A DNA stretch of 64,000 nucleotides from Candidatus Magasanikiibacteriota bacterium (GCA_026396515.1 JAPLWQ010000003.1:99569-163568); one strand, 5' to 3'; positions 22,552 to 55,284 are shown, counted from the stretch's first letter. The notes: generated by a model not told the origin, from the sequence alone. Program-made: numbers and translations.

Positions 22552-22555
22552 TTTT

Positions 22556-22584
22556 AAGGGCAGGACTCTTGTCCTGCCTTTTAA
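22556..22584 (+). terminator. Intrinsic terminator after rpmG
   Basis: Hairpin AAGGGCAGGAC-TCTT-GTCCTGCCTT followed by TT. Confidence 0.55.
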
Positions 22585-22588
22585 ACAC

Positions 22589-22626: not shown

Positions 22627-22668
22627 TTGCCTTGTTATTGGAGGAATGATGACGTATAATATAGACAT

Positions 22669-23112
22669 ATGGAAAGTAACATATGTCTAAAATGTCACAA
22701 GAGCAAGCTGATATCCGAATTCAGTATTAGAGATAAGGAATCAAGGCGTTTTCATAGCCTCTGCAAAGATTGCCATTCAAAATATAGGCGAGAGCACTAT
22801 TTGCGGAATAGAGAGAAATATTTAGTTAAGGCAAAACGATGGAACAAGAAACAGACGTTTTCTCTACGCGCATTTATCTTCGACTATCTCTCAAATCATC
22901 CATGTGTAGATTGTGGTTCGAAAGATGTTAGAGTTTTAGATTTCGACCATGAAAGAGATAAGAAAATGGGCATCGCTCAAATGATACGAAATTGTCATTC
23001 ATTGTCATCGGTAGAAAAAGAAATTAAAAAATGCAGAGTAAGATGTGCTAATTGCCATAGAATAAAAACATTTTCACGAGGAAATTTTTGGAAAAATAAA
23101 ATGGGTCCGTAG
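22669..23112 (+). CDS. HNH endonuclease with an N-terminal CxxC/CxxC zinc finger (homing-endonuclease-like)
   Basis: CVDCGSKDVRVLDFDHERDKK...CANCH is an HNH core. The stop codon lies inside the 5' end of tRNA-Trp. Confidence 0.7.
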   Translation: MESNICLKCHKSKLISEFSIRDKESRRFHSLCKDCHSKYRREHYLRNREKYLVKAKRWNKKQTFSLRAFIFDYLSNHPCVDCGSKDVRVLDFDHERDKKMGIAQMIRNCHSLSSVEKEIKKCRVRCANCHRIKTFSRGNFWKNKMGP

Positions 23113-23174
23113 TTTCAATGGTAAAACATCGGTCTCCAAAACCGAGGTTCCCCGTTCGAATCGGGGCGGGCCTG
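23103..23174 (+). tRNA. tRNA-Trp (anticodon CCA)
   Basis: Acceptor GGGTCCG/CGGGCCT (two G-U pairs), anticodon stem TCGGT/ACCGA, loop CTCCAAA, T-arm CCCCG-TTCGAAT-CGGGG. Confidence 0.8.
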
Positions 23175-23238
23175 CGATTTTTACCCCGCATAGGCGCGAA
23201 GCGCATTGTGCGGGGACTACACCCCCTGCGAAATAAAT

Positions 23239-36442: not shown

Positions 36443-37015
36443 TTACACTTTATACTTGCGTACCGCTCCCACCACCACCGCGGCAATATTTAATTCATCC
36501 GTCGGCACGATTGGACGGTATTTGCGGTTGGCCGGCACAAGCGTAATATGCTCGCCGGTTTTTTTGTAATATTTCAGCGTCCAGGCGTGGTCCACTTCTG
36601 CCACCACCACGTCGCCGTCGCGCGGCTGGCGTCCGCGTTCCACCAAAACCAAATCACCCGGCATAATACCGGCTTCAATCATCGAGTCGCCGGAAACTTT
36701 GAGCATATAAGTGGCTTCTTTGTGTCCGATTAAATATTCGTCCAAGGTCATGGTGTCGCAAAGTTCTTCCTCGGCCGGAGTAGGGAAGCCGGCGGCAATG
36801 TTGCCCAAAACCGGTACACCAAGAAAGCGCGAACCCGGTGCCAATCGTCCACCATCATCACGGCGCAAAAAACCTTCCTCTTCCAGCTTGGCCACGATTT
36901 TGTGCACTGCGTTGGTGGATTTGAGCCCGGCCAGAGCCATAAACTCGCGGTAGCTCGGCAGGCGCCGTTTGGTTTTGTAGAATTTGTTGAAAAACGCCAG
37001 GTAGTTCTTTCCCAT
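36443..37015 (-). CDS. lexA: LexA repressor (S24 peptidase)
   Basis: N-terminal wHTH, Ser-Lys dyad context VSGDSM...K and an AG cleavage site. Confidence 0.9.
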   Translation of the reverse strand: MGKNYLAFFNKFYKTKRRLPSYREFMALAGLKSTNAVHKIVAKLEEEGFLRRDDGGRLAPGSRFLGVPVLGNIAAGFPTPAEEELCDTMTLDEYLIGHKEATYMLKVSGDSMIEAGIMPGDLVLVERGRQPRDGDVVVAEVDHAWTLKYYKKTGEHITLVPANRKYRPIVPTDELNIAAVVVGAVRKYKV

Positions 37016-37071: not shown

Positions 37072-37087
37072 AGTGAACAAGTGTTCA
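37072..37087. promoter_or_regulatory. LexA (Cheo/SOS) box
   Basis: GTGAACAAGTGTTCAC contains GAAC-N4-GTTC (Gram-positive-type consensus CGAACRNRYGTTCG). It lies in the divergent lexA/helicase promoter region and overlaps a -10-like TATACT on the lexA strand. Confidence 0.7.
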
Positions 37088-37134
37088 CCTTGTCAATGTG
37101 GATAACTTTTCACCCCGTTAAACCCCGCCTAATT

Positions 37135-38523
37135 ATGTATTACAAAAAATCCGCCAAAAAGAAAACAAAGCAATACGCCAGCCGGCCGGTTAAAGAAGAC
37201 GCCAATCGTTTTGACCACCTGACAATCAACGACGAATGGCGCACCGTGCTCGACGCTCTGGAAAACAGTCCGGAAAATATTTTTGTCACCGGACGGGCCG
37301 GCACCGGCAAATCCACCCTGCTTGATTATTGGCGTGCTCAAACCAAACAAAACATTGTCGTGCTCGCGCCAACAGGCGTCGCCGCGCTCAATGTCCGCGG
37401 TCAAACCATTCATTCTTTTTTCGGTTTTCATCCGGGTATCACTCCGGCCGATGTCCGCCGCCACGGCACCAAAGAAGGCGCGGAAAATATGTATAAAAAA
37501 ATTGAGTCCATTGTGATTGACGAGGTCTCTATGGTGCGCGCCGACCTCTTGGACTGCGTGGATAAATTCATGCGCCTGAACGGCCGTGAACGCGGCCGGG
37601 CATTTGGCGGTGCGCGTCTCGTGGTATTCGGCGATATGTGTCAGCTCCCGCCGGTTATCACCAATGCCGAGCATGAGGCATTTTTTTCTCTTTACCGCAC
37701 GCCATATTTTTTCTCGGCCAATGTTTTGCGCGACCAGCAACTGGTCGGCCCATCCAATGATTTTTTGAAATTCGAACTCAACGAAGTTCACCGGCAGAAA
37801 GACGCCAATTTTATCCGTCTGTTAAATCGCGTGCGCGATAACGAAGCCACGGCCGAAGATTTGGCCGAACTCAACGAGCGTCACGATGAAAATTTTCAAA
37901 TGAGCGATGATGACTATCGCATTTATCTCACCGCCACCAATCAGGCGGCGGCGGAAATAAACGGGGCGCGCTTGAATCGCTTGTCCGGCAAACCGCAATC
38001 GTTCAAAGCCGATTCGTACGGCCATTTCGACGACCGCGCCTATCCCACCGACGAAGTATTACAACTTAAAGTCGGCGCGCAGGTGATGCTTATAAACAAC
38101 GACGCCACGAAACGCTGGGTCAATGGTTCAATCGGGCGCGTGGTTGATTTTAAAAAAAGTAACTATGGCTTGCCGGGTGTGAGCGTGAAATTGTCGGATG
38201 GGGAAGTGGTGGAAGTTGAACCGCACACCTGGAAGGCGCATCGCTATCATTTCAATGTCTCACAACAAAAAATCGAAGCCGAAGAAATTGGTGCCTTCAC
38301 TCAGCTGCCTCTCAAACTCGCCTGGGCGGTGACGATCCACAAAGCGCAAGGCAAAACCTTTGATCGCGTGGTGCTCGACATCGGGCGCGGGATGTTCGCC
38401 TCCGGCCAATTGTATGTCGCTCTGTCGCGCTGTACTTCACTCGAAGGAATTGTCCTCATCCAACCGCTTATGCCCCGGCACATCATCACCGATCCGGTCG
38501 TCTCCGAGTTTCTGCGCGGATAG
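37135..38523 (+). CDS. Pif1/RecD-family (AAA_30) ATP-dependent DNA helicase
   Basis: Walker A GRAGTGKST, Walker B IVIDEVSM and C-terminal SH3-like/2B domain motifs are present. The likely start is 37135, because the ORF-track start at 37081 overlaps the LexA box. Confidence 0.8.
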   Translation: MYYKKSAKKKTKQYASRPVKEDANRFDHLTINDEWRTVLDALENSPENIFVTGRAGTGKSTLLDYWRAQTKQNIVVLAPTGVAALNVRGQTIHSFFGFHPGITPADVRRHGTKEGAENMYKKIESIVIDEVSMVRADLLDCVDKFMRLNGRERGRAFGGARLVVFGDMCQLPPVITNAEHEAFFSLYRTPYFFSANVLRDQQLVGPSNDFLKFELNEVHRQKDANFIRLLNRVRDNEATAEDLAELNERHDENFQMSDDDYRIYLTATNQAAAEINGARLNRLSGKPQSFKADSYGHFDDRAYPTDEVLQLKVGAQVMLINNDATKRWVNGSIGRVVDFKKSNYGLPGVSVKLSDGEVVEVEPHTWKAHRYHFNVSQQKIEAEEIGAFTQLPLKLAWAVTIHKAQGKTFDRVVLDIGRGMFASGQLYVALSRCTSLEGIVLIQPLMPRHIITDPVVSEFLRG

Positions 38524-40836: not shown

Positions 40837-41670
40837 ATGCCGAGAAAGGCAGGGTCCAAAATGGCTAAAGTTTTATCACATATTAAAGAAAAACCTTATT
40901 TCAATAAGGGTGATTTTGTTTTATATCATGGTGACTGCATAAACACCCTCGAGCAAATACCGGAAAATTCGGTTGATATGGTTTTTGCGGATCCACCCTA
41001 TCTTTTGTCGAATGGCGGTTTTACATGTGACGGCGGAAAAATGGTTAGCGTAAATAAAGGCAAGTGGGATGTGAGCAACGGTCTTAAACAGGACTTTGAA
41101 TTTCATTTATCATGGATCAATGCGTGCAAACGCGTTTTAAAACCCGGGGGCACTATTTGGATCAGTGGAACATATCATTCAATATACCAATGCGGCTTCG
41201 CGCTTCAAGTGGAAAAGTTTCATATATTAAACGATATTGCATGGTTCAAACCGAATGCTTCGCCGAACTTGAGTTGCCGTTTTTTTACTGCCAGCCATGA
41301 AACATTAATTTGGGCGAGGAAAGACAAAAAAGCAAAGCACATGTTTAATTATAAATTGATGAAAAACGGTGATTGGCCGGATGATTTTATTAAAAAGCCA
41401 AACTTACAAATGCGAAGCGTGTGGTCCATTTATCCACCAAAAAGAGACGAGAAGAAATTTGGAAAACATCCAACTCAGAAACCGATTGATTTGCTTGTTC
41501 GGATTGTTTTGGCTAGTACAGATAAGGGTGACGTGGTTTTGGACCCGTTTTCTGGGTCCGCCACAACTGGATTGGCCGCGATATTAAATAATCGTAAATT
41601 TATTGGTGTTGATTTAGATAGAAAGTATTTGGATTTATCGATAAAGCGTTTCAGAAATTTAAATGCATAG
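40837..41670 (+). CDS. Beta-class DNA methyltransferase (N6-adenine or N4-cytosine), DPPY then FxGxG order
   Basis: Motif IV is VFADPPYLL and motif I is LDPFSGSATTGLAA. An alternative start lies at 40861. Confidence 0.8.
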   Translation: MPRKAGSKMAKVLSHIKEKPYFNKGDFVLYHGDCINTLEQIPENSVDMVFADPPYLLSNGGFTCDGGKMVSVNKGKWDVSNGLKQDFEFHLSWINACKRVLKPGGTIWISGTYHSIYQCGFALQVEKFHILNDIAWFKPNASPNLSCRFFTASHETLIWARKDKKAKHMFNYKLMKNGDWPDDFIKKPNLQMRSVWSIYPPKRDEKKFGKHPTQKPIDLLVRIVLASTDKGDVVLDPFSGSATTGLAAILNNRKFIGVDLDRKYLDLSIKRFRNLNA

Positions 41671-41672
41671 CT

Positions 41673-42221
41673 ATGCCAGTAAAGAAACCGGCTCGTAAAA
41701 ATATCTACACACATACGATAGATTTGGCACCTCTTAATATTATTAATCATCCACGCGAGCAATTTCGTGAAATGTTGGAAAGAATGAAATATCGCGGTTA
41801 TGAAGTCGAAAGATTGGCCGACGGTAGAAAAATTATTGTTACCAAGCCGGGAGGAAAATTTGTTTTCGGCACAGTGAAGCGTGAAGATTTTATGGTATGG
41901 ATTTTTAATCCGCAAACTAATGAATTATGGTTGATATCACACAAGAATATTTTTGAAGACCTCGAAAATAAAGCCAATGTTGATAAACGGGCGACTTTAC
42001 AAATTATTGCTGCGCTTGAGCGCGTTTATTCTGGCGATGAGCCCGATGTCGTTCTCGCCGAAATGGATTTGTCTAATCCTACAGGCGAGGCACCGGAATT
42101 ATTGTTAAAAGCATATAAATGGATTTGGGGCCAAGAAGATTGCAATTATCCAACGGGTGAAGGTAGGGATATGTCAATGAATATTATCAGAGAATTAAAG
42201 ACGCGTATTATTGTTGAATAA
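41673..42221 (+). CDS. Hypothetical protein, candidate cognate Type II restriction endonuclease
   Basis: 182 aa, 2 nt downstream of the MTase. No clear nuclease motif was recognised. Confidence 0.35.
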   Translation: MPVKKPARKNIYTHTIDLAPLNIINHPREQFREMLERMKYRGYEVERLADGRKIIVTKPGGKFVFGTVKREDFMVWIFNPQTNELWLISHKNIFEDLENKANVDKRATLQIIAALERVYSGDEPDVVLAEMDLSNPTGEAPELLLKAYKWIWGQEDCNYPTGEGRDMSMNIIRELKTRIIVE

Positions 42222-42268: not shown

Positions 42269-45200
42269 ATGCCTTTGGATAATCGAATCATCGATAATCA
42301 GAATAGCAACAATTTATACCGCGCGATATCAGAAGCCATTGGAGATGACACCCAAGGCATAGATATTGAAGTTGGATATTTTTATCTTTGCGGATTTGAA
42401 CTTTTATCAAAAAAACTTGATAAAATTAAAGTGCGAATCCTGGTTGGTTCTTATATTGATCCAGAAGCCATACCGACTTTAATAATGGAATCGATGAAAA
42501 AAACATCGGTAAATTTAGATCCGTTCCAACCCAGAAGTGTTCCGACTTCAAAACAGGAAAGAGTCAGAGCTCTTGGAGAAGGTATCAAGAAACTTGCAAA
42601 CCAAACATCAATATTTGACGCACCGGAATCTCAGGAATCATACTCAATTCTCGAAAGAAAACTCGAAGATGGTTCCCTTGAGATTAAAATGACCGAAACG
42701 CAAGCGCATGGAAAATGTTATGTAATCCATAATAAAAATGCCGGCAAAGTCTTTATGGGGTCGAGTAATTTTACTTATAATGGCCTAGTTGGACAGCAGG
42801 AAATAAACGAAACATTTGATACGGAAGAAAAATATAAGGAATATTCGAATAAATTTTCCGAGCGATGGGCCGATGCGCGCAATATCGTCATTCAAGAAAA
42901 AGGTAAATCAGACATGTTTTTGAGAAAATTTAAAGATGAACTTTGGATGAATGTGGTGCCGACTCCGTATCTTATGTATGTCCGGCTCCTTAATGAGATA
43001 TTTGGCGCTGAATACGAAGTTGATGTAACTAGCGCATCACAGGCTACACGAGGACAGTATTTGAACCTTTCATATCAGATGGATGCAGTAAAGATGGCAA
43101 TTGAAAGACTGAAAAATTATGATGGCGCTATCATAGCGGATGTTGTCGGTCTCGGGAAAAGTATTATAGCCACTACTATTGCTGTAAATTGTCCTGATTT
43201 AAAAACGATAATTATTGCCCCTCCGCATCTTGTTCCGATGTGGGAAGATTATGCCGAAGAGTTTAAACTTCGAGGGCCAAAGGTTTTTAGTGCTGGTAAA
43301 ATTGATGAGGTTTATGATAAATATAAAAATTCTACGGAGCCTATATTATTTATTCTCGATGAAGCGCATAGGTATAGAAATGAAGACACGCAAGACTATC
43401 AGTTGCTCCATCAGTTGACCCGCAGTAACGGTGAAAATAAGGTTTTAATACTATCAGCGACGCCCTTTAATAATGACCCGAGCGATATTTTTGCTTTGAT
43501 TAAACTTTTTCAAACTCCTGGCGCCGCCACACTTCGAACCGTAGAAAATTTATCAGCGAAGTTTGCAGATCTTGCGAATAGATATAAAACGCTTCGAAGA
43601 TTTCAAGCAAACGGTGCCATAACCACGGAACAGCGCAAAGAATTAGATAATAAACGCGATGCCATCGCCTCTGAGCTTCGACGATTACTTGAGCCTATTA
43701 TAATTAGACGTTCGAGGATAGACCTTGAAAAAATTACTCGTTACCGAGATGATTTGAAGGCTCAGAAAATTGAATTTTCAAAGATGAATGACCCAATTAT
43801 TCGGGAGTATAAATTAGGTAATTTCACTGACCTATATTTAGAAACCATAAACAAAATTGTGCCGGAAAAGAAAATTGTCGGCGGTTTAACCGGCGCACGA
43901 TACATGCCTACGACCTATGCTTTAGATATTGTAGATTTTACTAAAAAGTATCCGGATTTTGAAGATATTAGAACGGCTCAAATGAACGTAGCTTCCTTTA
44001 TGAGAAAACTTTTGGTAATGCGTTTTGAAAGTTCAAGAGCCGCATTCCAAAGTACTCTTCAAAAATTTATCGATTCACATCAAAGAATTCTCGATTGGGT
44101 AGAAAAAAAACAATTAGTACCAATTTCCAAGAAAGCCTATATTCCATCACCGGATGAGATGCCGGAAGAAGATGCGGAGGAAATTAATTCGGAAGAACAT
44201 GCAGAATTCGCAAACACTGAAGTCGCAAATAATAAAAAGATTGTTTTTGTTAAACTTGAGGATCTCAATGAAAAATTTGTACCTGAGCTTAAACATGATA
44301 TCAGCGTACTTACAGATATTTACGAAAAATGGTTTGGTTCGCAATCGCCGTTTTTATCGATGCCGGACCCCAAATTAAAACAACTCACTTTAGACATTCA
44401 AGAACGTCTAGCCAACGATCCGAATCGGAAAATTGTTATTTTTAGTATGTACGCAGATACAGTTGTTTATATAGGTGAAGAGCTCAAAAACGCTGGTATC
44501 CCAACCTTTGTATATACTGCTCAAAACAGCAATAGCGATCGCAAAATAATCAGAGAGAATTTTGACGCCGGAATCCCAACCGATAAACAGTCCGATGATT
44601 TCAGGGTTCTTGTTGCAACCGATGCTTTGAGCGAGGGTGTCAATCTGAATAGGGCAGGACGAGTTATTAATTATGATATTCCATATAATCCAACACGAGT
44701 CATACAGCGGGTAGGCCGGATAAACCGAATAGATAAAAAAATGTTTAAGGAGCTTTTTATTGATAACTATTTTCCTACCGAACATGGCGAGAAGGAAGTC
44801 AATATCAGGGGTGTGTCAACTTTAAAGATGCAGATATTTAATTCCGTGGTAGGTAATGATTCGCGCACCCTTACAGAAGATGAAACTCCGGAATCTTTTT
44901 TCATTGACGAATTTAGAAAGGCGACAACCGAAGAAGAGAGTTGGGATACTGTACACCGAGAAGCATACGAGCAAGCAAAACGAAATATACAAACAATGGA
45001 ATTAGCAAAAAAGATTCCGATGAGAGCGCGCATTGTGAGAACAAATAAGCCAGTTCAATTGGGGGTGGGGGTTGGTATTCGAGGGCAAAATAAAATATAT
45101 GCGCTCGAAACTAATGGACGGGCTGAGTTGGTTGATGCAGAAAAAGTATTAAATCATTTTGCTGCGAAACAGGACGAAGTTAGCGAGAAAGCCGATGACC

Positions 45201-45556
45201 AATTCGGGTTGGTTTTTGCCATATTGAAGGAAAAACTTTTTGAAAAGCCGCCCATGGGGCAAATGTCGAGAAACCGAACAGAGGTCGTGCGCATATTACG
45301 AAGTATTCGAGAAACTCAATATCAAAATTACCGCGATGATTTAATGAAAGTTGTCAGCGATCTTGACGACCTTTCAGAGGGGCAACTCAAAGCAATAATT
45401 AAGTTAGCAAAGAAGACTGATTTGTCTGAAGACCGATTAGTCGAAGCTATTATCGAAATAGCGCCGGAACAGCAGGTAAAGGTGAGCTTGGATAGACAAA
45501 ATAATGAAGCAAAATCGGCAAATCTTCTATTATTTACGCAAGAGCACCGCATATGA
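42269..45556 (+). CDS. PLD(HKD)-nuclease domain fused to an SNF2-family helicase
   Basis: The N-terminus has an HKD-like AHGKCYVIHNKNAGKVFMGSSNFT. The helicase has motifs I LGKS, II LDEAHRYRN, III LILSATPFNN and VI QRVGRINR. Confidence 0.8.
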   Translation: MPLDNRIIDNQNSNNLYRAISEAIGDDTQGIDIEVGYFYLCGFELLSKKLDKIKVRILVGSYIDPEAIPTLIMESMKKTSVNLDPFQPRSVPTSKQERVRALGEGIKKLANQTSIFDAPESQESYSILERKLEDGSLEIKMTETQAHGKCYVIHNKNAGKVFMGSSNFTYNGLVGQQEINETFDTEEKYKEYSNKFSERWADARNIVIQEKGKSDMFLRKFKDELWMNVVPTPYLMYVRLLNEIFGAEYEVDVTSASQATRGQYLNLSYQMDAVKMAIERLKNYDGAIIADVVGLGKSIIATTIAVNCPDLKTIIIAPPHLVPMWEDYAEEFKLRGPKVFSAGKIDEVYDKYKNSTEPILFILDEAHRYRNEDTQDYQLLHQLTRSNGENKVLILSATPFNNDPSDIFALIKLFQTPGAATLRTVENLSAKFADLANRYKTLRRFQANGAITTEQRKELDNKRDAIASELRRLLEPIIIRRSRIDLEKITRYRDDLKAQKIEFSKMNDPIIREYKLGNFTDLYLETINKIVPEKKIVGGLTGARYMPTTYALDIVDFTKKYPDFEDIRTAQMNVASFMRKLLVMRFESSRAAFQSTLQKFIDSHQRILDWVEKKQLVPISKKAYIPSPDEMPEEDAEEINSEEHAEFANTEVANNKKIVFVKLEDLNEKFVPELKHDISVLTDIYEKWFGSQSPFLSMPDPKLKQLTLDIQERLANDPNRKIVIFSMYADTVVYIGEELKNAGIPTFVYTAQNSNSDRKIIRENFDAGIPTDKQSDDFRVLVATDALSEGVNLNRAGRVINYDIPYNPTRVIQRVGRINRIDKKMFKELFIDNYFPTEHGEKEVNIRGVSTLKMQIFNSVVGNDSRTLTEDETPESFFIDEFRKATTEEESWDTVHREAYEQAKRNIQTMELAKKIPMRARIVRTNKPVQLGVGVGIRGQNKIYALETNGRAELVDAEKVLNHFAAKQDEVSEKADDQFGLVFAILKEKLFEKPPMGQMSRNRTEVVRILRSIRETQYQNYRDDLMKVVSDLDDLSEGQLKAIIKLAKKTDLSEDRLVEAIIEIAPEQQVKVSLDRQNNEAKSANLLLFTQEHRI

Positions 45557-48500
45557 TAAATCCTATTTTTTCAAATAAATATAACGAAGAAACATTTGCT
45601 GAATTTATACAAGGTATTATTCCGAGTCTTTCTTTAGATAAAAAACGAGCTGAGGTTCGCACCGGTTTCAAATCAATCCAACAAATTGCAGAAGCCAGTG
45701 AAAATAAACTCGATTTAGTCGTTTTTGTAGCCCAGCTAGATTCATCGCTTCATGCTCGTGTCGAAATTACAAAGAATACTTATGCCGTGCTCAAAAGTCA
45801 TGCTAGGTCTAATGCTTTGGTTGCCTATATTTCAGATGATTCTTCGGAATGGCGCCTCTCTCTCATCACCACCAAGGTTGCGAGGACAAAAGACGGAACA
45901 AAAGAATCAATATCAAACCCACGTCGTTTTTCTTATGTTTTGGGACCAAATGCAAAAGTGGCGACGCCTTCAAATATGCTACGAGGAACCATCGACTCAA
46001 TTATTGATCTGGAAAATAAGTTTTCTTTGGCGGTAGTTAGTAAGGAATTCTTTACTCAGATAGCGACACAATATTCTAAGCTTGTTGGAGGAACACGAGG
46101 AGAGGGACGAAAGGCAATGGTTTTTGAAAGGACGCTTAAGCTCGGAGATACAAATGATGCCGTCAATGCAAATTTTGCCATTCGTCTTATCGGTAGGTTA
46201 GTCTTTTGTTGGTTTCTGAAACAGAAAAAAGGACATCTAGGTAGTCCGCTCATACCGTCTGAGATACTATCTGTTTCTGCTGTAAAAACAATTGGCGATT
46301 ATTATCATTCAGTTTGTGTCCCACTTTTTTTCGAGGTTTTGAATAAACCACAACCCTCTCGACCAACAATTTTTTCTTATTCAGAATTATTCGATCAAGT
46401 TCCTTTTCTAAATGGTGGATTATTCCAAGACCATACAGAAGACAACCATAAATTTAATCGCGCTACCGGAATGAGCGAGCGGCGCGGTGTGGTTATTGTG
46501 CCCGACATTTGGTTTTCTGAATTGTTTCAAGTTTTTGAGGAATACAATTTTACAATTGATGAAAATACTTCGATAGATACGGAACTCTCGATTGATCCGG
46601 AAATGTTGGGTCGAATTTTTGAAAATCTTTTGGCGGAGGTGAACCCGGAAACTGGTGCCAGCGCACGGAAATCAACCGGAAGCTTCTATACCCCTCGTGA
46701 GATTGTTGACTTTATGGTAGAAGAATCACTTATTGCTCATCTCAAAACAAAAACCAATATATCCGAAGAAAAGCTACGGGCTCTTTCGTCTTACGATTTG
46801 GACGATGACACATCTCATCCAATTGATCAGCAAGAACAAAAACTGCTTGTTGAGGCTATACATAATACAACGGTTCTAGATCCCGCCTGTGGTTCCGGCG
46901 CTTTCCCGATCGGCGTTCTTCAGAGATTGGTGCACATGCTTGGCGTTCTTGATCCGGAATGTTCGATTTATTTGAGCAGGATTCCACCTGAAATGCGCAG
47001 GCAACTTCAAAAACATAGCCTTACATATGTCAGAAAACTCGGCGTAATTCGAGAGTGCATACACGGGGTGGATATACAGCCTGTTGCTATAGATATTTCT
47101 CGCTTAAGATGTTTTCTGACACTTGTCGTTGACCAACAAGTTGACGACGATGCCCCAAACAGGGGTATTGAGCCATTGCCAAACTTAGATTTTAAATTTG
47201 TTTGTGCCAACACGCTTATAAAACCGCCGGTCCATGAAGGCCCGCTATTCGGCGATGAATTTGCAGATGCATTAGGAGAACTTATTGACGAATATTTTGC
47301 GCCGGTCGATCAGTTGCACAAATTGGAGACAGCACGAAAATTACAACAGTTGATAAGCGAAAAAACAAACAAAGAACTCGAAAGCATCATTAAGTCATAT
47401 AGCTATCTGAAAGATGAAAAACATAAACAAGCGTTGGCTCAAATAAATGAAAAGTTAGATAGTGAAAGAATACGAATAAATTCACTCTGGAAAAGTTACG
47501 AAAATATCTTTCAAAATAAACCCGTTGGTTTTTTTGATACCAGATATTTTTTCCCCGTTGTATTTCGTGGCGGTGGTTTTGATATTGTGATAGGTAATCC
47601 GCCGTATGTTAGACAGGAAGAATTTTCAGGTATTAAGCCAGTTCTAAAAGAACAATACGGTGATTTTTTTAATGGACGTGCTGATCTATATACATACTTC
47701 ATCGCAAGAGGGACGACACTACTAAAAGAACGAGGAATTTTATCTTTTATAACATCAAATAAGTTTTTTGTTCGGGGTTATGGTGAAAACACAAGAGCAT
47801 TGCTTACAAAAGATATATCATTAAAAAAAGTGGTGAACTTCGGTGAGCTTCCTGTTTTTCAAGCATCTGTAGATTCAGCGATTGTGCTAGCGGAAAACAC
47901 AAAACCAAAAGAAAAAGACTCGCTTGATTTTGCTCAAGCAAAGACAGGGGCTGATATTAAAAACATCCATGAATTTTTTGAAACAAAAAAAGGAACTATA
48001 AAATTAACTTCTTTGGGATCGGGGGTATGGTCATTGCAGGATCCCGAAAAGTTAACAGTTTTAAATAAAATAAAGAGTCAAAAGAATACACTCGGGGCAT
48101 ATTACGATGGTAATATTTTTGCTGGACTTAAAACTGGGTTAGACGGCGTCTACGTAATCACAAGAAGCTTTCGGGACAAGTTGATTAATGCTGATAAAAA
48201 ATATGAAGTAGTTATTAAACCCTGGCTTAGAGGAAAAGATGTAAAAAAATGGAATCCTAACTTCCATGATTTGTGGGTAATAAATCTACGTTCTTCCTCG
48301 AACTTTACGTGGCCCTGGTCCGGGATGAGTAATGTTGTGGCTGAAACGATATTTCAATCGCAGTATCCTATTTTATATGACTATTTAATTCAGCACAAAA
48401 AAAAGATTTCAAAAAGAAGTGATCAGGGCGATTACTGGTGGGAACTGAGGTCTTGTGCTTACGATGACAAATTCAATACAAGAAAAATCATATATCCTGA

Positions 48501-48912
48501 CTGTGCAAAAGAGATGAGGGCCACATATGATGAAACGGGGCTATACGGAACACTTGCTATGTACATAGTGAGCTACGACCCCATAATTATGGGAATATTA
48601 AATAGTAAGCTTTTCGATTGGTATTCAAGAATGACATTTGCAACATTTGGCGATCCATGGAATGGTGGGAGAATAATTTTCAAAACAATTTATATGTCAA
48701 AAGTCCCAGTGCCTGATACTAAAAATAATACCGGTGTATTGATTAAGGGTGGTGTTGATAAAATTTTGGCAATTACCAAATCGAGCGATTATTTAGAAAA
48801 TTCTGCAAAAAAAGCAGAAGTCAAAAAATACGAAGAACAAATTGACAAGCTAGTTTATGAACTCTACGATCTGAAACCGGAAGAAATCGAAATTGTAGAA
48901 AATTTGAAATAA
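45553..48912 (+). CDS. MmeI/Eco57I/PglX/DrmMI-like gamma-class N6-adenine MTase, possible single-chain Type IIG/L RM enzyme
   Basis: Motif I is LDPACGSGAFP and motif IV is GNPPYV. The ~300-aa N-terminal domain contains D-x8-ExK (AQLDSSLHARVEITK). It overlaps the upstream gene by 4 nt (ATGA). Confidence 0.75.
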   Translation: MINPIFSNKYNEETFAEFIQGIIPSLSLDKKRAEVRTGFKSIQQIAEASENKLDLVVFVAQLDSSLHARVEITKNTYAVLKSHARSNALVAYISDDSSEWRLSLITTKVARTKDGTKESISNPRRFSYVLGPNAKVATPSNMLRGTIDSIIDLENKFSLAVVSKEFFTQIATQYSKLVGGTRGEGRKAMVFERTLKLGDTNDAVNANFAIRLIGRLVFCWFLKQKKGHLGSPLIPSEILSVSAVKTIGDYYHSVCVPLFFEVLNKPQPSRPTIFSYSELFDQVPFLNGGLFQDHTEDNHKFNRATGMSERRGVVIVPDIWFSELFQVFEEYNFTIDENTSIDTELSIDPEMLGRIFENLLAEVNPETGASARKSTGSFYTPREIVDFMVEESLIAHLKTKTNISEEKLRALSSYDLDDDTSHPIDQQEQKLLVEAIHNTTVLDPACGSGAFPIGVLQRLVHMLGVLDPECSIYLSRIPPEMRRQLQKHSLTYVRKLGVIRECIHGVDIQPVAIDISRLRCFLTLVVDQQVDDDAPNRGIEPLPNLDFKFVCANTLIKPPVHEGPLFGDEFADALGELIDEYFAPVDQLHKLETARKLQQLISEKTNKELESIIKSYSYLKDEKHKQALAQINEKLDSERIRINSLWKSYENIFQNKPVGFFDTRYFFPVVFRGGGFDIVIGNPPYVRQEEFSGIKPVLKEQYGDFFNGRADLYTYFIARGTTLLKERGILSFITSNKFFVRGYGENTRALLTKDISLKKVVNFGELPVFQASVDSAIVLAENTKPKEKDSLDFAQAKTGADIKNIHEFFETKKGTIKLTSLGSGVWSLQDPEKLTVLNKIKSQKNTLGAYYDGNIFAGLKTGLDGVYVITRSFRDKLINADKKYEVVIKPWLRGKDVKKWNPNFHDLWVINLRSSSNFTWPWSGMSNVVAETIFQSQYPILYDYLIQHKKKISKRSDQGDYWWELRSCAYDDKFNTRKIIYPDCAKEMRATYDETGLYGTLAMYIVSYDPIIMGILNSKLFDWYSRMTFATFGDPWNGGRIIFKTIYMSKVPVPDTKNNTGVLIKGGVDKILAITKSSDYLENSAKKAEVKKYEEQIDKLVYELYDLKPEEIEIVENLK

Positions 48913-48956
48913 AAAAATCTAAAAAATTTCTATATTAATAAATTTTACGCACTAAT

Positions 48957-50585
48957 ATGGGGTCAAAATTCCTTTCAGCTCTTTCTGAAGAGGCGTATCT
49001 TAAACTAACTGATAAGTTGTATGGGATACAAAGTGGGCAGTGTTTTATATGCCAAAAAAAGATTGATTTAGCGCTTCAAACCACTAATATAGATCACATC
49101 ATACCACTTAAAACTCGGGGTAAGGATTCGGAAGATAATTTCGCCTTAACACACGAGAGTTGCAATAAATCGAAACTAGATGCAAATTTAAATATTGCAA
49201 GAATTTTGTGTCACCTTAAAGAAATACAGGACCGAGTTTTCGTCGATAGTGGTCGGGCGGCATCCCTTAAGGATGTTTTGGCTTCCTTTGGTGGTTCGAA
49301 GTATGATTTTAAACATAAGATTAGTAATGATAAGATTGAATTTAGTTTTTCAGACGTTAGAGAAAATGATATACAAATCAAAGATATTTATGAAGATATT
49401 TTAACTGGTAATCAGACTGGTAAAATTGAAAAGACTTGTTTTACAGACGTCCCCATTGAATACATTTATCACGATGACGCAATAAATCCACGTGGCATAA
49501 ACACAAGCATAAGTCGACTAGTAAAGGAATTTTATAAAGGCAATCCCCAGCTGCACTTATGTTTAGCACGAATCGATGATAATAAGTTAAAAATTTTTGA
49601 TGGTCAGCATAAAGCAGTCGCGCAAATATTACTTGGGAACAAGAGGCTGCTGCTCCGTATCTTCATTGACCCAAACGTAGATAGACTGACTGAGACAAAT
49701 ACTAACGCGGGGAGTACTTTGAGGCAAATTGCGTTTGATAAATCAATAATGCGCCAATTGAATAATACGTTATACACTGAGAAGATAGATAAATTTCAAG
49801 CGGACCACCACTTGGCAGAGGACGATTTCTCGTTTTCAGAACAGCAACTCGTCGATTATTTTAAGGGTGAAAATGTAAATATGAAAAAATATATTTCTGA
49901 TAGTATAAAACACTCCATTACATATTCAAAAGAAAATAAACTAAAAGATTACATAGACTTTGAAGGTAAGGCGAAGGAGTTACCAATTTCTTATAGTGCT
50001 TTTAGCAAAGCAATTCTCGAGCAAGTTGTCGATTCTAAACAATTTTTGGATACACCTATTAATTACAAGTCCGAAGAAGGTCTGAATCCACGAGAAATGC
50101 AGATAAACCAAATTGTTGAATTGCTTAATATAATTGCTGAAGAGATATATATCGGTAAATTTAAACCAGAAATTGGAGTATACCGTATTGAACAAAAGAT
50201 TATTGACAAGAAAGATGTAGAAATTACTACCGAGCATTTGACTGCTTATCGTATGAGCAAAGAAGAAATAATTTTCAATTGGTTTATATATTTAAACAAA
50301 GTCATTGAAAGTTATTTTAATAATACGGGTAGGATTTACGAAGCCAACCAATTATTTATGGAGAAGTTTGACGATCAATTGTGGGCAAACATACGGAATT
50401 TTATTAACAATTTATCCATCCTTCCTCTCTGGAAAGATAAGTCTATGGCAAGCACAATTTTTGCAGGTAAGAAGAATTATGATTATTGGAAAGAAATTTT
50501 TGAAAAGGGAAAAAGTCCTGACGGGGCGCAAGTTCTTGCCACGCCATTAAATTTTATTGAAATGATAAGAAGCGAAAAACAATAA
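48957..50585 (+). CDS. N-terminal HNH nuclease fused to a DndB/ParB-like (DGQHR-type) domain
   Basis: The HNH core is CFICQKK...DHIIPLKTRGKDSEDNFALTHESCNKSK. FDGQHKAVAQIL is a DGQHR/DGQQR-like motif. Confidence 0.6.
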   Translation: MGSKFLSALSEEAYLKLTDKLYGIQSGQCFICQKKIDLALQTTNIDHIIPLKTRGKDSEDNFALTHESCNKSKLDANLNIARILCHLKEIQDRVFVDSGRAASLKDVLASFGGSKYDFKHKISNDKIEFSFSDVRENDIQIKDIYEDILTGNQTGKIEKTCFTDVPIEYIYHDDAINPRGINTSISRLVKEFYKGNPQLHLCLARIDDNKLKIFDGQHKAVAQILLGNKRLLLRIFIDPNVDRLTETNTNAGSTLRQIAFDKSIMRQLNNTLYTEKIDKFQADHHLAEDDFSFSEQQLVDYFKGENVNMKKYISDSIKHSITYSKENKLKDYIDFEGKAKELPISYSAFSKAILEQVVDSKQFLDTPINYKSEEGLNPREMQINQIVELLNIIAEEIYIGKFKPEIGVYRIEQKIIDKKDVEITTEHLTAYRMSKEEIIFNWFIYLNKVIESYFNNTGRIYEANQLFMEKFDDQLWANIRNFINNLSILPLWKDKSMASTIFAGKKNYDYWKEIFEKGKSPDGAQVLATPLNFIEMIRSEKQ

Positions 50586-50986: not shown

Positions 50987-51523
50987 ATGATTAATTCATT
51001 AACATATACACATATGAGAAGAACTAAGCAAAAGACACATAAAGCAAGTGTTCAAGTTGATAACCCGCCATTGTTTATTGGCTTTATCATGGAAGAGAAG
51101 GCCTTTTCGTTTGATGTTTATTTAATAAACAATTCGAACTGGAAATATAAAAGCGTAACCATTTTTACCGGCGCATTTATGACGGTTGACGACGACCTGC
51201 TGGAGACGAGTAAGGTCGTTAAAGTTAAGGGTCCTCTTGGAGCTTATTCAAGCATAAAAATCGATAGAAGTGATTGGAATGAATTGGATTTTGTGATCTG
51301 GTATCACCTTGATCTTGTTCGCGCGGATGATACGGTCGAGAAATATTGGTTTTGTTTACCTAAAGGTGGCGGTGATTACGACAATAAGGTGATTAAATTG
51401 CCAATAATTAACAGGAAAGGCATGAGCATAGAATTGGAGGCCAGAAATGGTGAATGTATCGCAGAGGAGACCAAAACTATTGAGATGAAATCAAAGTATC
51501 ACAAATTTAGTAAGGAATATTAA
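50987..51523 (+). CDS. Hypothetical protein
   Basis: 178 aa with the RBS GGAAAGGAAAG upstream. No motif recognised. Confidence 0.45.
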   Translation: MINSLTYTHMRRTKQKTHKASVQVDNPPLFIGFIMEEKAFSFDVYLINNSNWKYKSVTIFTGAFMTVDDDLLETSKVVKVKGPLGAYSSIKIDRSDWNELDFVIWYHLDLVRADDTVEKYWFCLPKGGGDYDNKVIKLPIINRKGMSIELEARNGECIAEETKTIEMKSKYHKFSKEY

Positions 51524-51548
51524 ATAATAAATATTAAATAATAAATAT

Positions 51549-51806
51549 ATGAGTATTAATGATCTAAAATATATTAATGATGATGAATTGGATGGGTACT
51601 CGTTACTCGGAAAGGGAACAGGCACTAGCTTGCAGCACTGCGCAAGTATGGGTGTACGCCATTGCAAAGATTTTCTGAATCGAGTACGCGGATACAGGAT
51701 TGAGCAAAGCGACACCAGTGAAATGATGTATAAGGCCTTAAAGGAAATAGGGGATAAAAGAGAGTGGCCGATGTATATCACAGTGTCATTTTACGAAAAA
51801 AAATGA
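51549..51806 (+). CDS. Small hypothetical protein
   Basis: 85 aa. Its stop codon lies inside a perfect inverted repeat. Confidence 0.4.
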   Translation: MSINDLKYINDDELDGYSLLGKGTGTSLQHCASMGVRHCKDFLNRVRGYRIEQSDTSEMMYKALKEIGDKREWPMYITVSFYEKK

Positions 51807-51817
51807 CACTGTGATAT
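51775..51817. repeat. Perfect 18-bp inverted repeat (hairpin)
   Basis: ATATCACAGTGTCATTTT-ACGAAAA-AAAATGACACTGTGATAT. No U-tract follows on either strand. Confidence 0.7.
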
Positions 51818-51886
51818 ACTTGTCCAAAACAGCGTAAAGTGGGATAATATGTACAGATTTAATCAAATTTTGAAATTTATAAATAT

Positions 51887-52414
51887 ATGAATTCTCAAAA
51901 TAGACAAAGAAACTCTTTTGTTGCTTTATGCGATTATGCTTCACGTTCCAATTGGTGTTGGAATATTGTTTGTACAACCTGCGGGCATGGTGCGTTTAAA
52001 GTTTCGTATGCAAAAATAATCAATGGTCAAAATCCTGATGATGAATCATTTTGGCCATATGGCAAGGAAAATGACGATTCACTTAAAGAAATGAATGTTA
52101 ATAGAGTTTTTCTTGGTGATGCGAGTGCCGATGCCCAAATTAAACTTGCGTCTGTTGTCGCAAAAGCCAAATTATCCGATATCCAATCTGTGGCGAAATT
52201 TCCTGATTGGTTAGGGTATATTGGTCTTGTTATCCATCATTGTCCTAACCAGGAAGCCAGGAAGATTATATCCGATTCGTTTCTTTCGCAATTTATCGAA
52301 TTATTGAAGGATAAAGCTGGAATTCGCGAATATTTAAGCCAGAAACAAGCGAAACAAGAATTATTAGATATTAATGATTTAAGTAGAATTGAAAATGAAA
52401 TTGTTAATCACTAA
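51887..52414 (+). CDS. Hypothetical Cys-containing protein
   Basis: 175 aa with CWNIVCTTCGHG. No family recognised. Confidence 0.45.
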   Translation: MNSQNRQRNSFVALCDYASRSNWCWNIVCTTCGHGAFKVSYAKIINGQNPDDESFWPYGKENDDSLKEMNVNRVFLGDASADAQIKLASVVAKAKLSDIQSVAKFPDWLGYIGLVIHHCPNQEARKIISDSFLSQFIELLKDKAGIREYLSQKQAKQELLDINDLSRIENEIVNH

Positions 52415-52447
52415 AAAGTTGATCCCATAAACGACGCTATTAAAAAT

Positions 52448-53215
52448 ATGCTCGGCGCCATAGCAGGGGATATTATCGGTTCAGTTTACGAATGGAATAA
52501 TATTAAAACAACGGATTTTCCGTTGTTTTCAGACCGTTCGCATTTTACGGATGATACGGTAATGACTGTCGCTGTGGCCGAATGTTTAATAAGCGGGAAA
52601 GATTATTTTTTAACCTTTAAAGAAATTGGCCAAAAATATCCTGATGCCGGGTACGGCGATGCTTTCAGGCAATGGCTTTTTTCACGGCAGACCGAACCGA
52701 ACAATAGTTTTGGAAATGGCGCTGCAATGCGGATTAGCCCGATTGGTTTTTTCTTTAATGATTTGGATTCGGTTTTATCCAAAGCAGTGAAATGTACGAA
52801 TATAACTCACGATCATCCTGAAGCGCGGAAAGGCGCGCAGGCGGTTGCGGCAGCCATATTTTTGGCACGAACCGGCAAAACAAAAGCGGAGATTAAGGAT
52901 TATGTTGAAAAAAGTTTTGGCTATGATTTGAGCAGGCGTTTGGATGATATCCGGCCAAATTATAAATTTGATGCCAGTTGCCAGGGCTCGGTGCCTGAAG
53001 CGATTATTGCTTTTCTGGAATCCACTGATTACGAAGACACCGTACGGAAGGCGGTTTCTCTTGGTGGCGATAGCGACACAATTGCCTGCATAACCGGCGG
53101 AATCGCCGAGGCGTTTTATAAAGGCGTGCCTAATGATATAATTACCAAGACCCGGGCGTTATTAACACCTGATTTATTGGATGTCGTTGATAAGTTTTAT
53201 GAACATATTAAATAA
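52448..53215 (+). CDS. ADP-ribosylglycohydrolase family protein (DraG/ARH3-like)
   Basis: LGAIAGDIIGSVYEW...FTDDTVMTVAVAE are the N-terminal Mg-binding motifs. GGDSDTIACITGGIAEAFY is the C-terminal motif. Confidence 0.8.
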   Translation: MLGAIAGDIIGSVYEWNNIKTTDFPLFSDRSHFTDDTVMTVAVAECLISGKDYFLTFKEIGQKYPDAGYGDAFRQWLFSRQTEPNNSFGNGAAMRISPIGFFFNDLDSVLSKAVKCTNITHDHPEARKGAQAVAAAIFLARTGKTKAEIKDYVEKSFGYDLSRRLDDIRPNYKFDASCQGSVPEAIIAFLESTDYEDTVRKAVSLGGDSDTIACITGGIAEAFYKGVPNDIITKTRALLTPDLLDVVDKFYEHIK

Positions 53216-53256
53216 TTTTTATAATTAGTTTTTTAATTCATTTTATTTTATTCGCT

Positions 53257-53790
53257 ATGAACAAACTCTCGGCGCTAAAAATCATTCTCGCGCTGCTCCC
53301 GGCCCTGATATTTACCCAGAGCTGGGCTTGGGTTACCGGCAAGCATTATACACTCTTTGCTTTGCTCGTTCTTTGGGCGGCGATGGTTTGGTTTGTTTTG
53401 GATTATGCAGATAAAAACAAGATTATATTCAAGCTGTTGCGCGCGCTTGAAATTGCCTTCTTTTTACTCCCGATTTCAGCATATGCAGCTGTATCTATCC
53501 TTAGTTCGCTCATGATGAGGGCTTCAAGCAGTGAATTTGAAAGAACGGGCGCGGCAATCGGTTCGGCAATCGGCGGTACGATCGTCGTTGTCATCGCGCT
53601 TGTTATCGGTTTGATTTTGGGTCTTATCACGCATATCATTGCCGGTAGCTTTCAGAAAAAGGTTGATAAAAATATCAAAGAAGAGCCGGGAAAAAATTTC
53701 TTTACCCAGAACAAAGCGCTTACTATTTTTATCGGCATGATTATTTTGGTGATTATCGTCGATCTAACCAGCAAGACATTCATTAAATAG
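53257..53790 (+). CDS. Hypothetical membrane protein
   Basis: 177 aa with several TM helices. Confidence 0.5.
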   Translation: MNKLSALKIILALLPALIFTQSWAWVTGKHYTLFALLVLWAAMVWFVLDYADKNKIIFKLLRALEIAFFLLPISAYAAVSILSSLMMRASSSEFERTGAAIGSAIGGTIVVVIALVIGLILGLITHIIAGSFQKKVDKNIKEEPGKNFFTQNKALTIFIGMIILVIIVDLTSKTFIK

Positions 53791-53802: not shown

Positions 53803-55284
53803 ATGGCGGCATCAGTGTTAGATATGCTTACAAAATCCCAATTCATGAATTATGTTAAGTGCCCGGTGTATTTTTGGCTTGCCAAACACCGGCCTGATTT
53901 GATTCCGGAAGATACGGCGGCGACACAGCGGCTTTTTGCCATGGGCAAAGAGGTGGATTTGCTGTCCCGCCAGCTTTTTTCTGGTGGTGTTGAAACCGCC
54001 GGTTTTAACCAAGAGGGTTGGGAGAACACGCAGGCGCTACTTGCCGGCTCTGCCAAGGTCATTTTTCAGCCCACAGCGGTGGCTGAACCGCTGACCTGCC
54101 GGGCGGATATCCTGACGCGCAATGGCGCAAAGTGGGACCTTCACGAGGTGAAACAGTCAAACAGTGTCCAGCCGAAACATATTTTTGATGTTGGTTTCCA
54201 GCGTATTTGTTTTGAGAGTGCCGGCGTGAAAATTGGCCGGTCATATTTGGTGCATCTCAACCGCGAATATGTCCGCCAGGGTGCGATTGAGCCGGAAAAA
54301 TTGTTTATTTCGGAAGATATCACGGATGAGGTTCTGGAAAAGATGGATGAGATAAAAGAGGAGATTGCCAAGGCACTTGAAATATTGAAATGGACCAAAG
54401 AGCCGGACAAGCGTTTGATTAAACTCTGCAGTACGCCGAAAAACTGTGAATATTTGAAATATTATTGTGAGGGCGTGGCAGGCGTGCCGGAAATAGCGGC
54501 GGAAATCGGATCCAAACATTTGCTCGCGTTAATAAAGCGGGGGATTATCGCGCCGGAAAAATTATCCGCTGAAATACTTACGAAAGTTGGTTATGAGCCG
54601 GAAGAGCCGTTTACGAAAATTGACGCGCCGTCTATCCGCCGGGAACTGAAAAAGTTGGAATATCCTTTGTATTTTTTTGATTACGAAACATATGGCGAGG
54701 CTATTCCGCCTTTTGACGGCACGAGGCCACATCAGCAAATTCCTTTTCAATATTCCTTACATATTAAAGATTCACCGGATGCGGAAATCAGGCATCTGGA
54801 ATTTTTGGCCACGAAGTTTGAAAATCCTGTGTCCGAATTGCTGGCGCAATTAAAACGCGACATCGAGCCGAAGGGAAGCGTGATTGTATGGTTTGAATCA
54901 TTTGAAAAATCGCGCAACGAGGAAATGGCAAAAATGATGCCGGAGTATGCTGATCTTTTGGATGATTTGAACGAGCGAATTTTTGACCTGTATCTTATTT
55001 TTAAAATCAAGAGTGAGATGTACTCTGACAGTGAGTTTCAAGGAAGCGCGTCACTCAAGGCGGTCTTGCCGGTACTTTGTCCGGAACTTTCCTATGAATC
55101 ATTGGAAATACAGGAGGGCGGTACCGCTTCATCAAGCTGGCCTATTTTGACGAGCGACAAAACGCCGGTTGCGGAAAAAGAAAAATTGAAGAATAATATG
55201 CTGGAGTATTGTCAGCGGGATACGGAGGCGATGGTGGGGATTTTGAATAAAGTGTGCGAGGATATTGATTGTAAGATTCAATAA
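53803..55284 (+). CDS. Cas4/RecB-like PD-(D/E)xK nuclease (4-Cys cluster) fused to a DUF2779-like C-terminal domain
   Basis: There is an N-terminal Cys (VKCP) and CSTPKNCEYLKYYC. CRADIL...LHEVKQS is a D/E-x-K motif. The C-terminus has YFFDYETYG. Confidence 0.55.
   Translation: MAASVLDMLTKSQFMNYVKCPVYFWLAKHRPDLIPEDTAATQRLFAMGKEVDLLSRQLFSGGVETAGFNQEGWENTQALLAGSAKVIFQPTAVAEPLTCRADILTRNGAKWDLHEVKQSNSVQPKHIFDVGFQRICFESAGVKIGRSYLVHLNREYVRQGAIEPEKLFISEDITDEVLEKMDEIKEEIAKALEILKWTKEPDKRLIKLCSTPKNCEYLKYYCEGVAGVPEIAAEIGSKHLLALIKRGIIAPEKLSAEILTKVGYEPEEPFTKIDAPSIRRELKKLEYPLYFFDYETYGEAIPPFDGTRPHQQIPFQYSLHIKDSPDAEIRHLEFLATKFENPVSELLAQLKRDIEPKGSVIVWFESFEKSRNEEMAKMMPEYADLLDDLNERIFDLYLIFKIKSEMYSDSEFQGSASLKAVLPVLCPELSYESLEIQEGGTASSSWPILTSDKTPVAEKEKLKNNMLEYCQRDTEAMVGILNKVCEDIDCKIQ

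Follow-up and report, generated by a model that had tools for sequence, protein, structure and literature searches.

A low-GC island in a 64,000-nucleotide stretch of Candidatus Magasanikiibacteriota bacterium DNA (GCA_026396515.1, JAPLWQ010000003.1:99569-163568; the whole stretch is "the window" below) carries three co-directional genes, which we call A, B and C. A and B overlap by 4 nucleotides (ATGA), and C follows B after 44 nucleotides that contain no terminator-like site or hairpin. An earlier account of the locus (the "sequence-only reading") had joined the three in a tight defense system; its open reading frames (ORFs), the overlap, the gap and all of its motifs were found where it had placed them. 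Several lines of evidence given below make it likely that the island is instead a mosaic of independent modules, namely a Type II methyltransferase with a small ORF, an A-B pair resembling a restriction-modification system, and a stand-alone nuclease, C. The three genes and their domains, with positions in amino acids (aa), are as follows.

42269-45556, + strand: gene A, ORF of 1095 aa; PLD(HKD) nuclease fused to an SNF2-type ATPase
42353-42868, + strand: A aa 29-200, single HKD/PLD nuclease domain (H147-x-K149 ... G164-S-S-N167); Pfam PLDc_2 3.3e-11, RE_NgoFVII 4.6e-05
43070-44731, + strand: A aa 268-821, SNF2/SF2 ATPase core; Pfam SNF2-rel_dom and Helicase_C
45553-48912, + strand: gene B, ORF of 1119 aa; Type IIG/IIL-like gamma-class N6-adenine methyltransferase with a target-recognition domain
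45553-46032, + strand: B aa 1-160, alpha/beta domain with a restriction-endonuclease-like fold; no conserved catalytic motif in this clade
46033-46542, + strand: B aa 161-330, MmeI/PglX-like helical spacer (RLIGRxxFCWFL, PxLNGGLF)
46543-47922, + strand: B aa 331-790, core of the methyltransferase, with TGSFYTPR (motif X), DPACGSGAF (motif I) and NPPY (motif IV, aa 682-685)
47950-48909, + strand: B aa 800-1119, target-recognition domain of the TaqI_C type, hypervariable; the Pfam TaqI_C match covers aa 890-1031
48957-50585, + strand: gene C, ORF of 542 aa; HNH, ParB/sulfiredoxin (Srx)-fold (DGQHK) and helical C-terminal domains
48957-49256, + strand: C aa 1-100, Cas9/McrA-type zinc-finger HNH nuclease (C29, C32, D46-H47, N61, H66, C69-N70)
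49269-49721, + strand: C approximately aa 105-255, domain with a ParB/sulfiredoxin fold; HDxxINPR at aa 172-179, FDGQHK at aa 214-219

The nuclease motifs of A (H147-G-K149 and G164-S-S-N167) and its ATPase motifs (Walker A GLGKS at aa 294-298, DEAH at 364-367 and motif VI QRVGRINR at 813-820) are invariant among 12 homologs that are 45-89% identical. An unannotated PHROGs family matches the protein at 5e-98, and Pfam profiles give it no recognizable target-recognition or modification-reader domain. B matches Pfam Eco57I (1e-37), N6_Mtase and TaqI_C. The PADLOC model REase_MTase_IIG matches it at 1e-94, though the alignment is confined to aa 160-1078 and leaves the nuclease part unmatched. The order of motifs X, I and IV is that of the gamma class, and all three are kept across 59 homologs; in relatives of B, the N-terminal domain and spacer together match Pfam DUF7814. 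A is the predicted motor-nuclease ("Res"-like) subunit of a two-gene module, and B its predicted "Mod" or specificity subunit.

Variation within the pair is concentrated at the end of B. Compared with the closest loci, A is 78-91% identical, aa 1-340 of B 78-89% and the methyltransferase core 73-81%, while aa 800-1119 fall to 29-47%; mean column conservation across this last region in the 59 homologs is 0.09-0.30. Judged from these alignments, A-B has evolved internally in the manner of a restriction-modification system whose specificity resides in a subunit of its own.

No D...(D/E)xK motif is present in the N-terminal domain of B. Only two of its acidic columns are broadly conserved, D25 (80% of the family) and E59 (85%), and the B protein of the window has S25 and V59 at these positions. 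Since these acidic residues are missing from this clade, we take B to be a methyltransferase and specificity subunit of Type IIG/IIL descent whose nuclease domain is putatively degenerate, and A to be the predicted nuclease and motor. The clade in which E59 is replaced comprises the window and eight of our comparison loci (L012, L014, L015, L016, L020, L026, L032 and L066; L numbers denote such loci throughout), and the N-terminal domain may be active in one part of the family and dead in another.

To place the pair in a wider context, one genome per species was scanned for homologs of A, which yielded at least 547 loci; neighborhoods were counted in the best 80. These span candidate phyla radiation (CPR) bacteria, Bacillota, Bacteroidota, Planctomycetota, Elusimicrobiota, Proteobacteria and Actinomycetota. 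A homolog of B lies immediately 3' of A in 76 of the 80, and in the other four the contig ends right after A. Among the viral contigs of IMG/VR, B adjoins A in 23 of the 27 that bear A, down to 26-34% identity, and the 4-nucleotide overlap is kept in close homologs. That the pair is conserved by itself in more than ten phyla, and on viral contigs as well, marks it as a complete unit and not a product of decay. Copies from Planctomycetia, Saccharibacteria, Zixibacteria and Gammaproteobacteria have A proteins that are 78-89% identical, a horizontal spread in which A-B moves as one unit.

A search for a third gene, in which all ORFs of 90 aa or more from the 80 loci were clustered all against all, returned just two families that recur: A, in 80 loci, and B, in 76. 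After these came serine recombinases (11 loci), integrases (6), an AlbA_2/Schlafen-HTH protein (6) and then Cas4-like/DUF2779 proteins. Recombinases, AlbA_2/Schlafen-HTH and Cas4-like/DUF2779 proteins were each rejected as a conserved third gene, being present in at most 14% of the loci.

In Bacteroidota, a gene with AlbA_2/Schlafen, HATPase_c_4 and winged helix-turn-helix domains is inserted between A and B or lies just upstream of them (L088, 13177-15123; L090, 4716-6101; L091, 13231-15138; L096, 5370-6914; also L042, L074 and L089). RefSeq labels it "RNA-binding domain-containing protein"; its product may regulate A-B, or act as a sensor for it, in this lineage specifically.

The same neighborhood approach separates C from the pair. 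No A-bearing locus, among 80 from genomes and 30 from viral sequences, has a homolog of C. In a reverse sample of 88 C loci drawn from metagenomes, viral contigs and genomes, none has a true homolog of A or B, and no neighboring family occurs in more than four. Five contexts of C from diverse lineages likewise lack A-B and place the gene among housekeeping or assorted defense genes. In the nearest relatives of the window's A-B (88-91% identical), the genes after B are either ThsB-TIR, 8xMP and Mrr or PC4, MORC, GmrSD_N and Cas4, and the nearest relatives of its C (77-83% identical) come after DUF4365 or a Type I hsdS-hsdR operon. Because A-B and C do not co-occur in either direction, and because the neighbors of their closest relatives are heterogeneous, A-B is the only conserved unit and C is independent of it. 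A tight three-gene system, as the sequence-only reading had it, would have been a new defense architecture, and by the gene-neighborhood check it is not real.

A looser connection was considered, in which C is a facultative auxiliary or back-up effector at the 3' end of many types of restriction operon and cooperates loosely with A-B, for example by covering phages whose modified DNA escapes A-B. In L212, L131, L140, L142, L149, L158 and L175, a large restriction gene (Type I hsdR or another) does end only 0-40 nucleotides before C. Its commonest immediate neighbors belong to restriction-type helicase families: the 112 nearest-neighbor proteins of C homologs include ResIII (8), HsdR-type SWI2_SNF2 (5), AAA_14 (4) and Fic (3), along with DUF4143 (with AAA_14), YhcG and methyltransferases, and are enriched for various restriction genes. 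Auxiliary nucleases adjoining BREX and BR cores are on record (PMC12839542), and ParB-family genes have been found inside restriction-modification loci (PMC3632139). Yet such a neighbor is present in only about 10% of C loci, many copies lie among housekeeping genes with no restriction gene near (L001-L006, L010 and L011), and no single partner family exceeds four of the 88 loci. Stand-alone Type IV-like nucleases and ParB-family genes occupy defense islands in a similar manner (PMC3632139). We regard a facultative partnership as unlikely, though it deserves to be kept in mind. In the metagenomic locus L175 (3067-15952), the C homolog is wedged between ORFs of 1644 and 2110 aa, with gaps of 0 and 18 nucleotides.

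C has a fixed architecture of about 540 aa that can be traced down to 22% identity. Its relatives number more than 1800, are typically 65-83% identical, and occur in CPR bacteria, Bacteroidales, Bacilli, Geobacter, Spirochaetia and Nanoarchaeota. The zinc-finger HNH residues, HDxxINPR and FDGQHK are invariant or nearly so across the family, and the lysine of DGQHK is invariant. Profile searches of C (Pfam, NCBIfam, PADLOC, PHROGs and a PDB sequence profile) detected HNH only, with no DndB, DGQHR or DUF262 match. The DUF262 (PF03235) and DndB (PF14072) profiles matched none of 25 family members (for PF14072, at E <= 1), and NCBIfam gave C no hit to the DndB/DGQHR family at E <= 0.1. The ParB/Srx fold was resolved by structure prediction alone, with ParB, PadC and Srx as structural neighbors. 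The domain calls of the sequence-only reading for A, B and C were therefore right, those made by profile through Pfam and similar libraries and the DGQHR/ParB-like call for C through structure prediction only. Relatives of C are lacking among PLSDB plasmids and number only three in IMG/VR, and a plasmid or phage origin of the gene, given these counts, is unsupported.

We infer that C is a separate single-gene nuclease whose HNH domain is intact and would be controlled by a nucleotide-binding domain of the ParB/sulfiredoxin type, as its predicted fold suggests. Its closest analogs are GmrSD/BrxU, SspE and DndI, in which a ParB-like NTPase gates an HNH nuclease and which can act without a dedicated methyltransferase (PMC4619093; PMC11662687). 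C shares with them a single chain (about 550-650 aa) that joins a ParB/Srx-fold DGQ(Q/H)(R/K) domain to a His-Me/HNH nuclease, as well as residence in defense islands (PMC4619093; PMC11662687). By analogy, C probably acts as a nucleotide-gated restriction nuclease, modification-dependent or infection-triggered, that needs no cognate methyltransferase. It differs from GmrSD, SspE and DndI, which carry an N-terminal DUF262 domain with DGQQR and a C-terminal DUF1524 domain: in C the HNH domain comes first and is of the zinc-finger Cas9/McrA type, the loop reads DGQHK, and neither the PF03235 nor the DUF1524 profile matches. Nor does C belong to the DndB/DGQHR family (PF14072, TIGR03187), since no profile matches and DGQHK replaces DGQHR. 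Among ParB/Srx-fold nucleotide binders, it shows the predicted fold and the invariant FDGQHK loop, and NTP binding or hydrolysis through a GxxR/DGQxR loop is putative. No Dnd or Ssp genes (dndACDE, sspABCD) were found among the window genes scanned or among the 112 nearest neighbors of C homologs. A 2025 survey noted ParB-CTPase/HNH fusions as uncharacterized (PMC12704722).

Comparison with described systems indicates what A-B resembles and what it is not. The closest characterized analog is MANTIS/Gao_RL/BR type 2 (MtsABCD; Hma is type 1). In both, an effector with an N-terminal HKD/PLD domain and an SF2/SNF2 ATPase adjoins a specificity-bearing N6-adenine methyltransferase (PMC12839542; 10.64898/2026.09.23.753747), the effector is conserved while the recognition domain of the methyltransferase varies, and the logic is that of ATP-dependent restriction-modification. 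The agreement is one of architecture only, the PADLOC match of A to HmaA being partial (2.5e-22). MANTIS differs in that loading and activation of its methyltransferase require two more proteins, the DUF499 AAA+ ATPase MtsA and the small DUF3780/3870 protein MtsB, and DUF499 and DUF3780 genes are present in 98% of type-2 BR loci (PMC12839542). Both are absent from the window, and no additional recurrent family appears in the 80 A-B loci. B also differs from its MANTIS counterpart in being an MmeI/Eco57I-like protein of 1100 aa with a restriction-endonuclease-like N-terminal domain of its own.

Type III (EcoP15I) and Type ISP (LlaGI/LlaBIII) enzymes share with A-B a methyltransferase that sets specificity and an SF2 ATPase-nuclease, Type III also in two genes; hemimethylation of an asymmetric site and long-range ATP-driven communication before cleavage would be expected in common. 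The differences lie in the parts. A has an N-terminal PLD domain where Type III enzymes have a C-terminal PD-(D/E)XK domain, B is gamma-class and MmeI-like and not a beta-class Mod, the motor is SNF2-like, and the gene for the motor precedes that for the methyltransferase. Type ISP enzymes are single polypeptides, and neither Mrr nor Type_ISP_C matches the pair.

Type IIG/IIL enzymes (Eco57I, MmeI, DrdV) combine a gamma-class N6-adenine methyltransferase, a recognition domain and an MmeI-like helical spacer in one polypeptide, and B has all of these. It lacks the competent N-terminal PD-(D/E)XK nuclease, and it differs from Type IIG/IIL enzymes and from BREX PglX in being strictly paired with a separate motor-nuclease, with no PglZ, BrxC or BrxL. 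One might suppose that B is nonetheless an autonomous Type IIG enzyme and that A is an unrelated, SauUSI-like Type IV nuclease, modification-dependent and ATP-driven, merely traveling along. The match to REase_MTase_IIG and the N-terminal fold of B are in keeping with this, and PLD-helicase enzymes such as SauUSI work alone. The idea is nevertheless very unlikely: the IIG model leaves the nuclease part unmatched, the acidic residues conserved elsewhere in the family are missing from the N-terminal domain in this clade, A has no recognizable domain for reading a target or a modification, and the near-obligate adjacency, the start-stop overlap and the co-variation of A with the N-terminal part of B point to one machine.

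DISARM and BREX were the other systems with which A-B had to be compared. The components of Class 1 DISARM (DrmA-D, DrmMI) likewise include a helicase of the SNF2 type, a PLD nuclease and an adenine methyltransferase resembling Eco57I; in A the PLD and SNF2 parts are fused, and DrmA and DrmB (DUF1998) are absent. DUF1998 matches none of the neighbors in the window, where no ORF other than A and B exceeds 751 aa. The DrmD equivalog (NCBIfam NF038317, cut-off 610 bits) gives A 138 bits over a partial alignment (aa 570-900). For BREX (types 1-6), the window has no PglZ or BrxC, and B scores 64 bits against a BREX-1 PglX cut-off of 500. The profile searches for DUF1998, pglZ and brx that the sequence-only reading had proposed thus found no such gene in the window, and its view that the locus is not canonical DISARM, BREX or Dnd/Ssp was borne out, scores being below cut-offs and partner genes absent. 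Assignment of A-B to DISARM, BREX, BR/MANTIS or Hma was rejected on sub-cut-off scores and on the lack of the defining partners in the window and in the 80 loci.

It is scarcely plausible, too, that A-B is a decayed or minimal remnant of Class 1 DISARM, BREX type 3 or BR type 2/MANTIS/Gao_RL/Hma whose other genes have been lost or lie elsewhere. Partial PADLOC and NCBIfam matches link A to DrmD, HmaA, BrxHII and DpdE, and B to DrmMI and PglX, and an HKD-SF2 protein with an N6-adenine methyltransferase makes up two of the four MANTIS genes. However, the scores are far below the cut-offs (DrmD 138 versus 610, PglX 64 versus 500, and 123 versus 1100 for the PLD anti-phage family); genes for DUF499, DUF3780, DUF1998, PglZ or BrxC-like proteins neither recur in the 80 loci nor occur in the window; and the pair is widely conserved by itself. 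That A, B and C form one obligate three-component system, with C as a second effector or sensor of A-B, is hardly credible at all, for although the genes share a strand, are closely spaced with no terminator-like site between B and C, and all encode nucleic-acid enzymes typical of defense, C is missing from every genome and viral A locus, A and B from every C locus, and unrelated genes follow B and precede C in their closest kin.

We read A-B as a self-contained two-gene, ATP-dependent system that resembles restriction-modification and follows Type III/ISP/MANTIS logic. The variable TaqI_C-type domain of B would recognize a short, probably asymmetric DNA site, at which B would methylate adenine by way of its NPPY motif and so mark host DNA. 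At an unmethylated site B would recruit or license A, whose SNF2 motor would move along double-stranded DNA by ATP hydrolysis until two A protomers join, form one PLD active site and cut the DNA. B would then be a Type IIG/IIL-like enzyme with a degenerate N-terminal nuclease, the task of cleavage having passed to A. Since each A protein has a single HKD motif, it would have to pair to form a PLD active site. Pairing to form one PLD active site is known for Nuc and BfiI. The MANTIS protein MtsD is a PLD-SF2 dimer with one shared PLD site and is targeted by its methyltransferase (10.64898/2026.09.23.753747). With a single methyltransferase and a single recognition domain, B would probably hemimethylate an asymmetric site. 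Hemimethylating systems (Type III, Type ISP, MANTIS) rely on site orientation and on long-range communication driven by ATP to leave newly replicated host DNA intact, and by analogy A-B may do so too.

Several considerations weigh against this account of three modules. Binding between A and B and DNA cutting by A are putative, predicted from sequence and by analogy. C is co-directional with B at a short distance and with no terminator-like site between them, which leaves room for co-transcription or local cooperation. Homologs of C lie 0-40 nucleotides from other restriction genes in several loci, and this spacing hints at a loose functional tie of C to restriction operons generally. The putative nucleotide-binding role of the ParB-like domain of C follows from its fold only, with no DndB or DUF262 profile match.

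A broader proposal is offered tentatively, and we hold it with rather less than even confidence. A-B may be a distinct, widespread and unnamed class of minimal ATP-dependent restriction-modification, present in at least 547 species genomes and on phage and prophage contigs, in which a IIG/IIL-derived methyltransferase with a degenerate nuclease domain hands cleavage to a separately encoded PLD-SNF2 motor that has to dimerize in order to cut. It would be the simplest known relative of MANTIS/BR, DISARM and BREX, one without a loader ATPase. C would be the founder of a new family of single-gene, nucleotide-gated HNH restriction nucleases built on the ParB-CTPase fold.

The A-B module is very common; current tools give its genes no labels beyond "Type IIG methylase" and "helicase-related protein", and database records call the pair merely "SNF2-related protein" and "N-6 DNA methylase". 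A literature search that lay outside REBASE and subscription papers, where an earlier description of the module could exist, found no paper naming a two-gene PLD-SNF2 and methyltransferase system and nothing specific on DUF7814. Because the pair holds the effector logic of MANTIS/BR and DISARM without their loader ATPases, it is a tractable minimal model; it could serve to study the licensing of a motor-nuclease by a methyltransferase and the means by which hemimethylating systems keep from cutting their own DNA. The C family, strongly conserved, horizontally spread and with no characterized member of its HNH-ParB-fold architecture of about 540 aa, provides an added candidate for a single-gene defense nuclease and enlarges the recently noted, unstudied group of ParB-CTPase/HNH fusions (PMC12704722). 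Both A-B and C are candidates for annotation updates in defense-finding pipelines, and neither overturns current concepts.

The island itself extends from approximately 40 to 53 kilobases (kb), with a GC content of 0.35-0.41 against 0.45-0.52 in the flanks, and the view of it as a defense island holds. Scans for promoters and terminators between 39.5 and 54 kb performed at chance level (41 found versus 42 expected, and 14 versus 12.5) and are uninformative on operon structure; a promoter-like site (10/12) about 87 nucleotides upstream of C is not significant. Two further genes precede A.

40837-41670, + strand: Type II N6_N4 (beta-class) DNA methyltransferase; Pfam N6_N4_Mtase 1.8e-55, PADLOC MTase_II 4e-96
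41673-42221, + strand: ORF of 182 aa, candidate partner of the Type II methyltransferase

The sequence-only reading had called these a second methyltransferase and restriction enzyme pair. The methyltransferase is clear, and it is a separate module of the same island. The restriction enzyme was not confirmed: the 182-aa ORF matches nothing in Pfam, PADLOC or PHROGs, which is evidence neither for nor against such a role. A Type II N6_N4 methyltransferase that is 74% identical occupies the same upstream position in L094 (460-1947) and L095 (488-1975), and the A-B copy downstream of it is 91% identical to that of the window. The small ORFs that follow the methyltransferase (182 aa in the window, 205 aa in L094) are unrelated to each other. 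The shared position and the unrelated small ORFs indicate that in this sub-clade the methyltransferase travels with A-B while its putative partner is swapped.

At 53803-55284, beginning 3.2 kb after C, is a gene for a DUF2779/Cas4-like protein of 493 aa. Homologs of this gene are found directly after C in a Falkowbacteria contig (41% identical; L007, 11671-13143) and shortly after B in three unrelated A-B loci (L050, 17237-18712; L051, 9382-10800; L075, 15991-17445). A distinct PDDEXK_1/Cas4-like gene of 255 aa is located directly 3' of B in L024, L026, L028 and L066. The DUF2779/Cas4-like genes may be a recurrent accessory or merely residents of defense islands. The interval between C and the DUF2779 gene (50987-53790) holds two ORFs of 178 and 175 aa that match no library, an ADP-ribosylglycohydrolase (52448-53215) and a DUF996-like membrane protein. 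All of them are inside the low-GC stretch and may be further defense or counter-defense cargo.

Immediately upstream of the island, the - strand encodes a UmuC-like Y-family polymerase (34376-35674) and an S24/LexA-like peptidase (36443-37015), and the + strand encodes a PIF1-like helicase (37081-38523). Genes of the LexA/S24 type recur near A-B (L032, L061, L063 and L068) and near C (L008 and L009). Elsewhere in the window, an AAA_5 (MoxR-like) ATPase of 751 aa and an adjoining CobT_C/VWA protein of 670 aa (8354-12625) make up a pair of the MoxR-VWA type, and four tRNA genes (Thr-GGT, Thr-TGT, Tyr-GTA and Trp-CCA) are clustered at 22087-23175.

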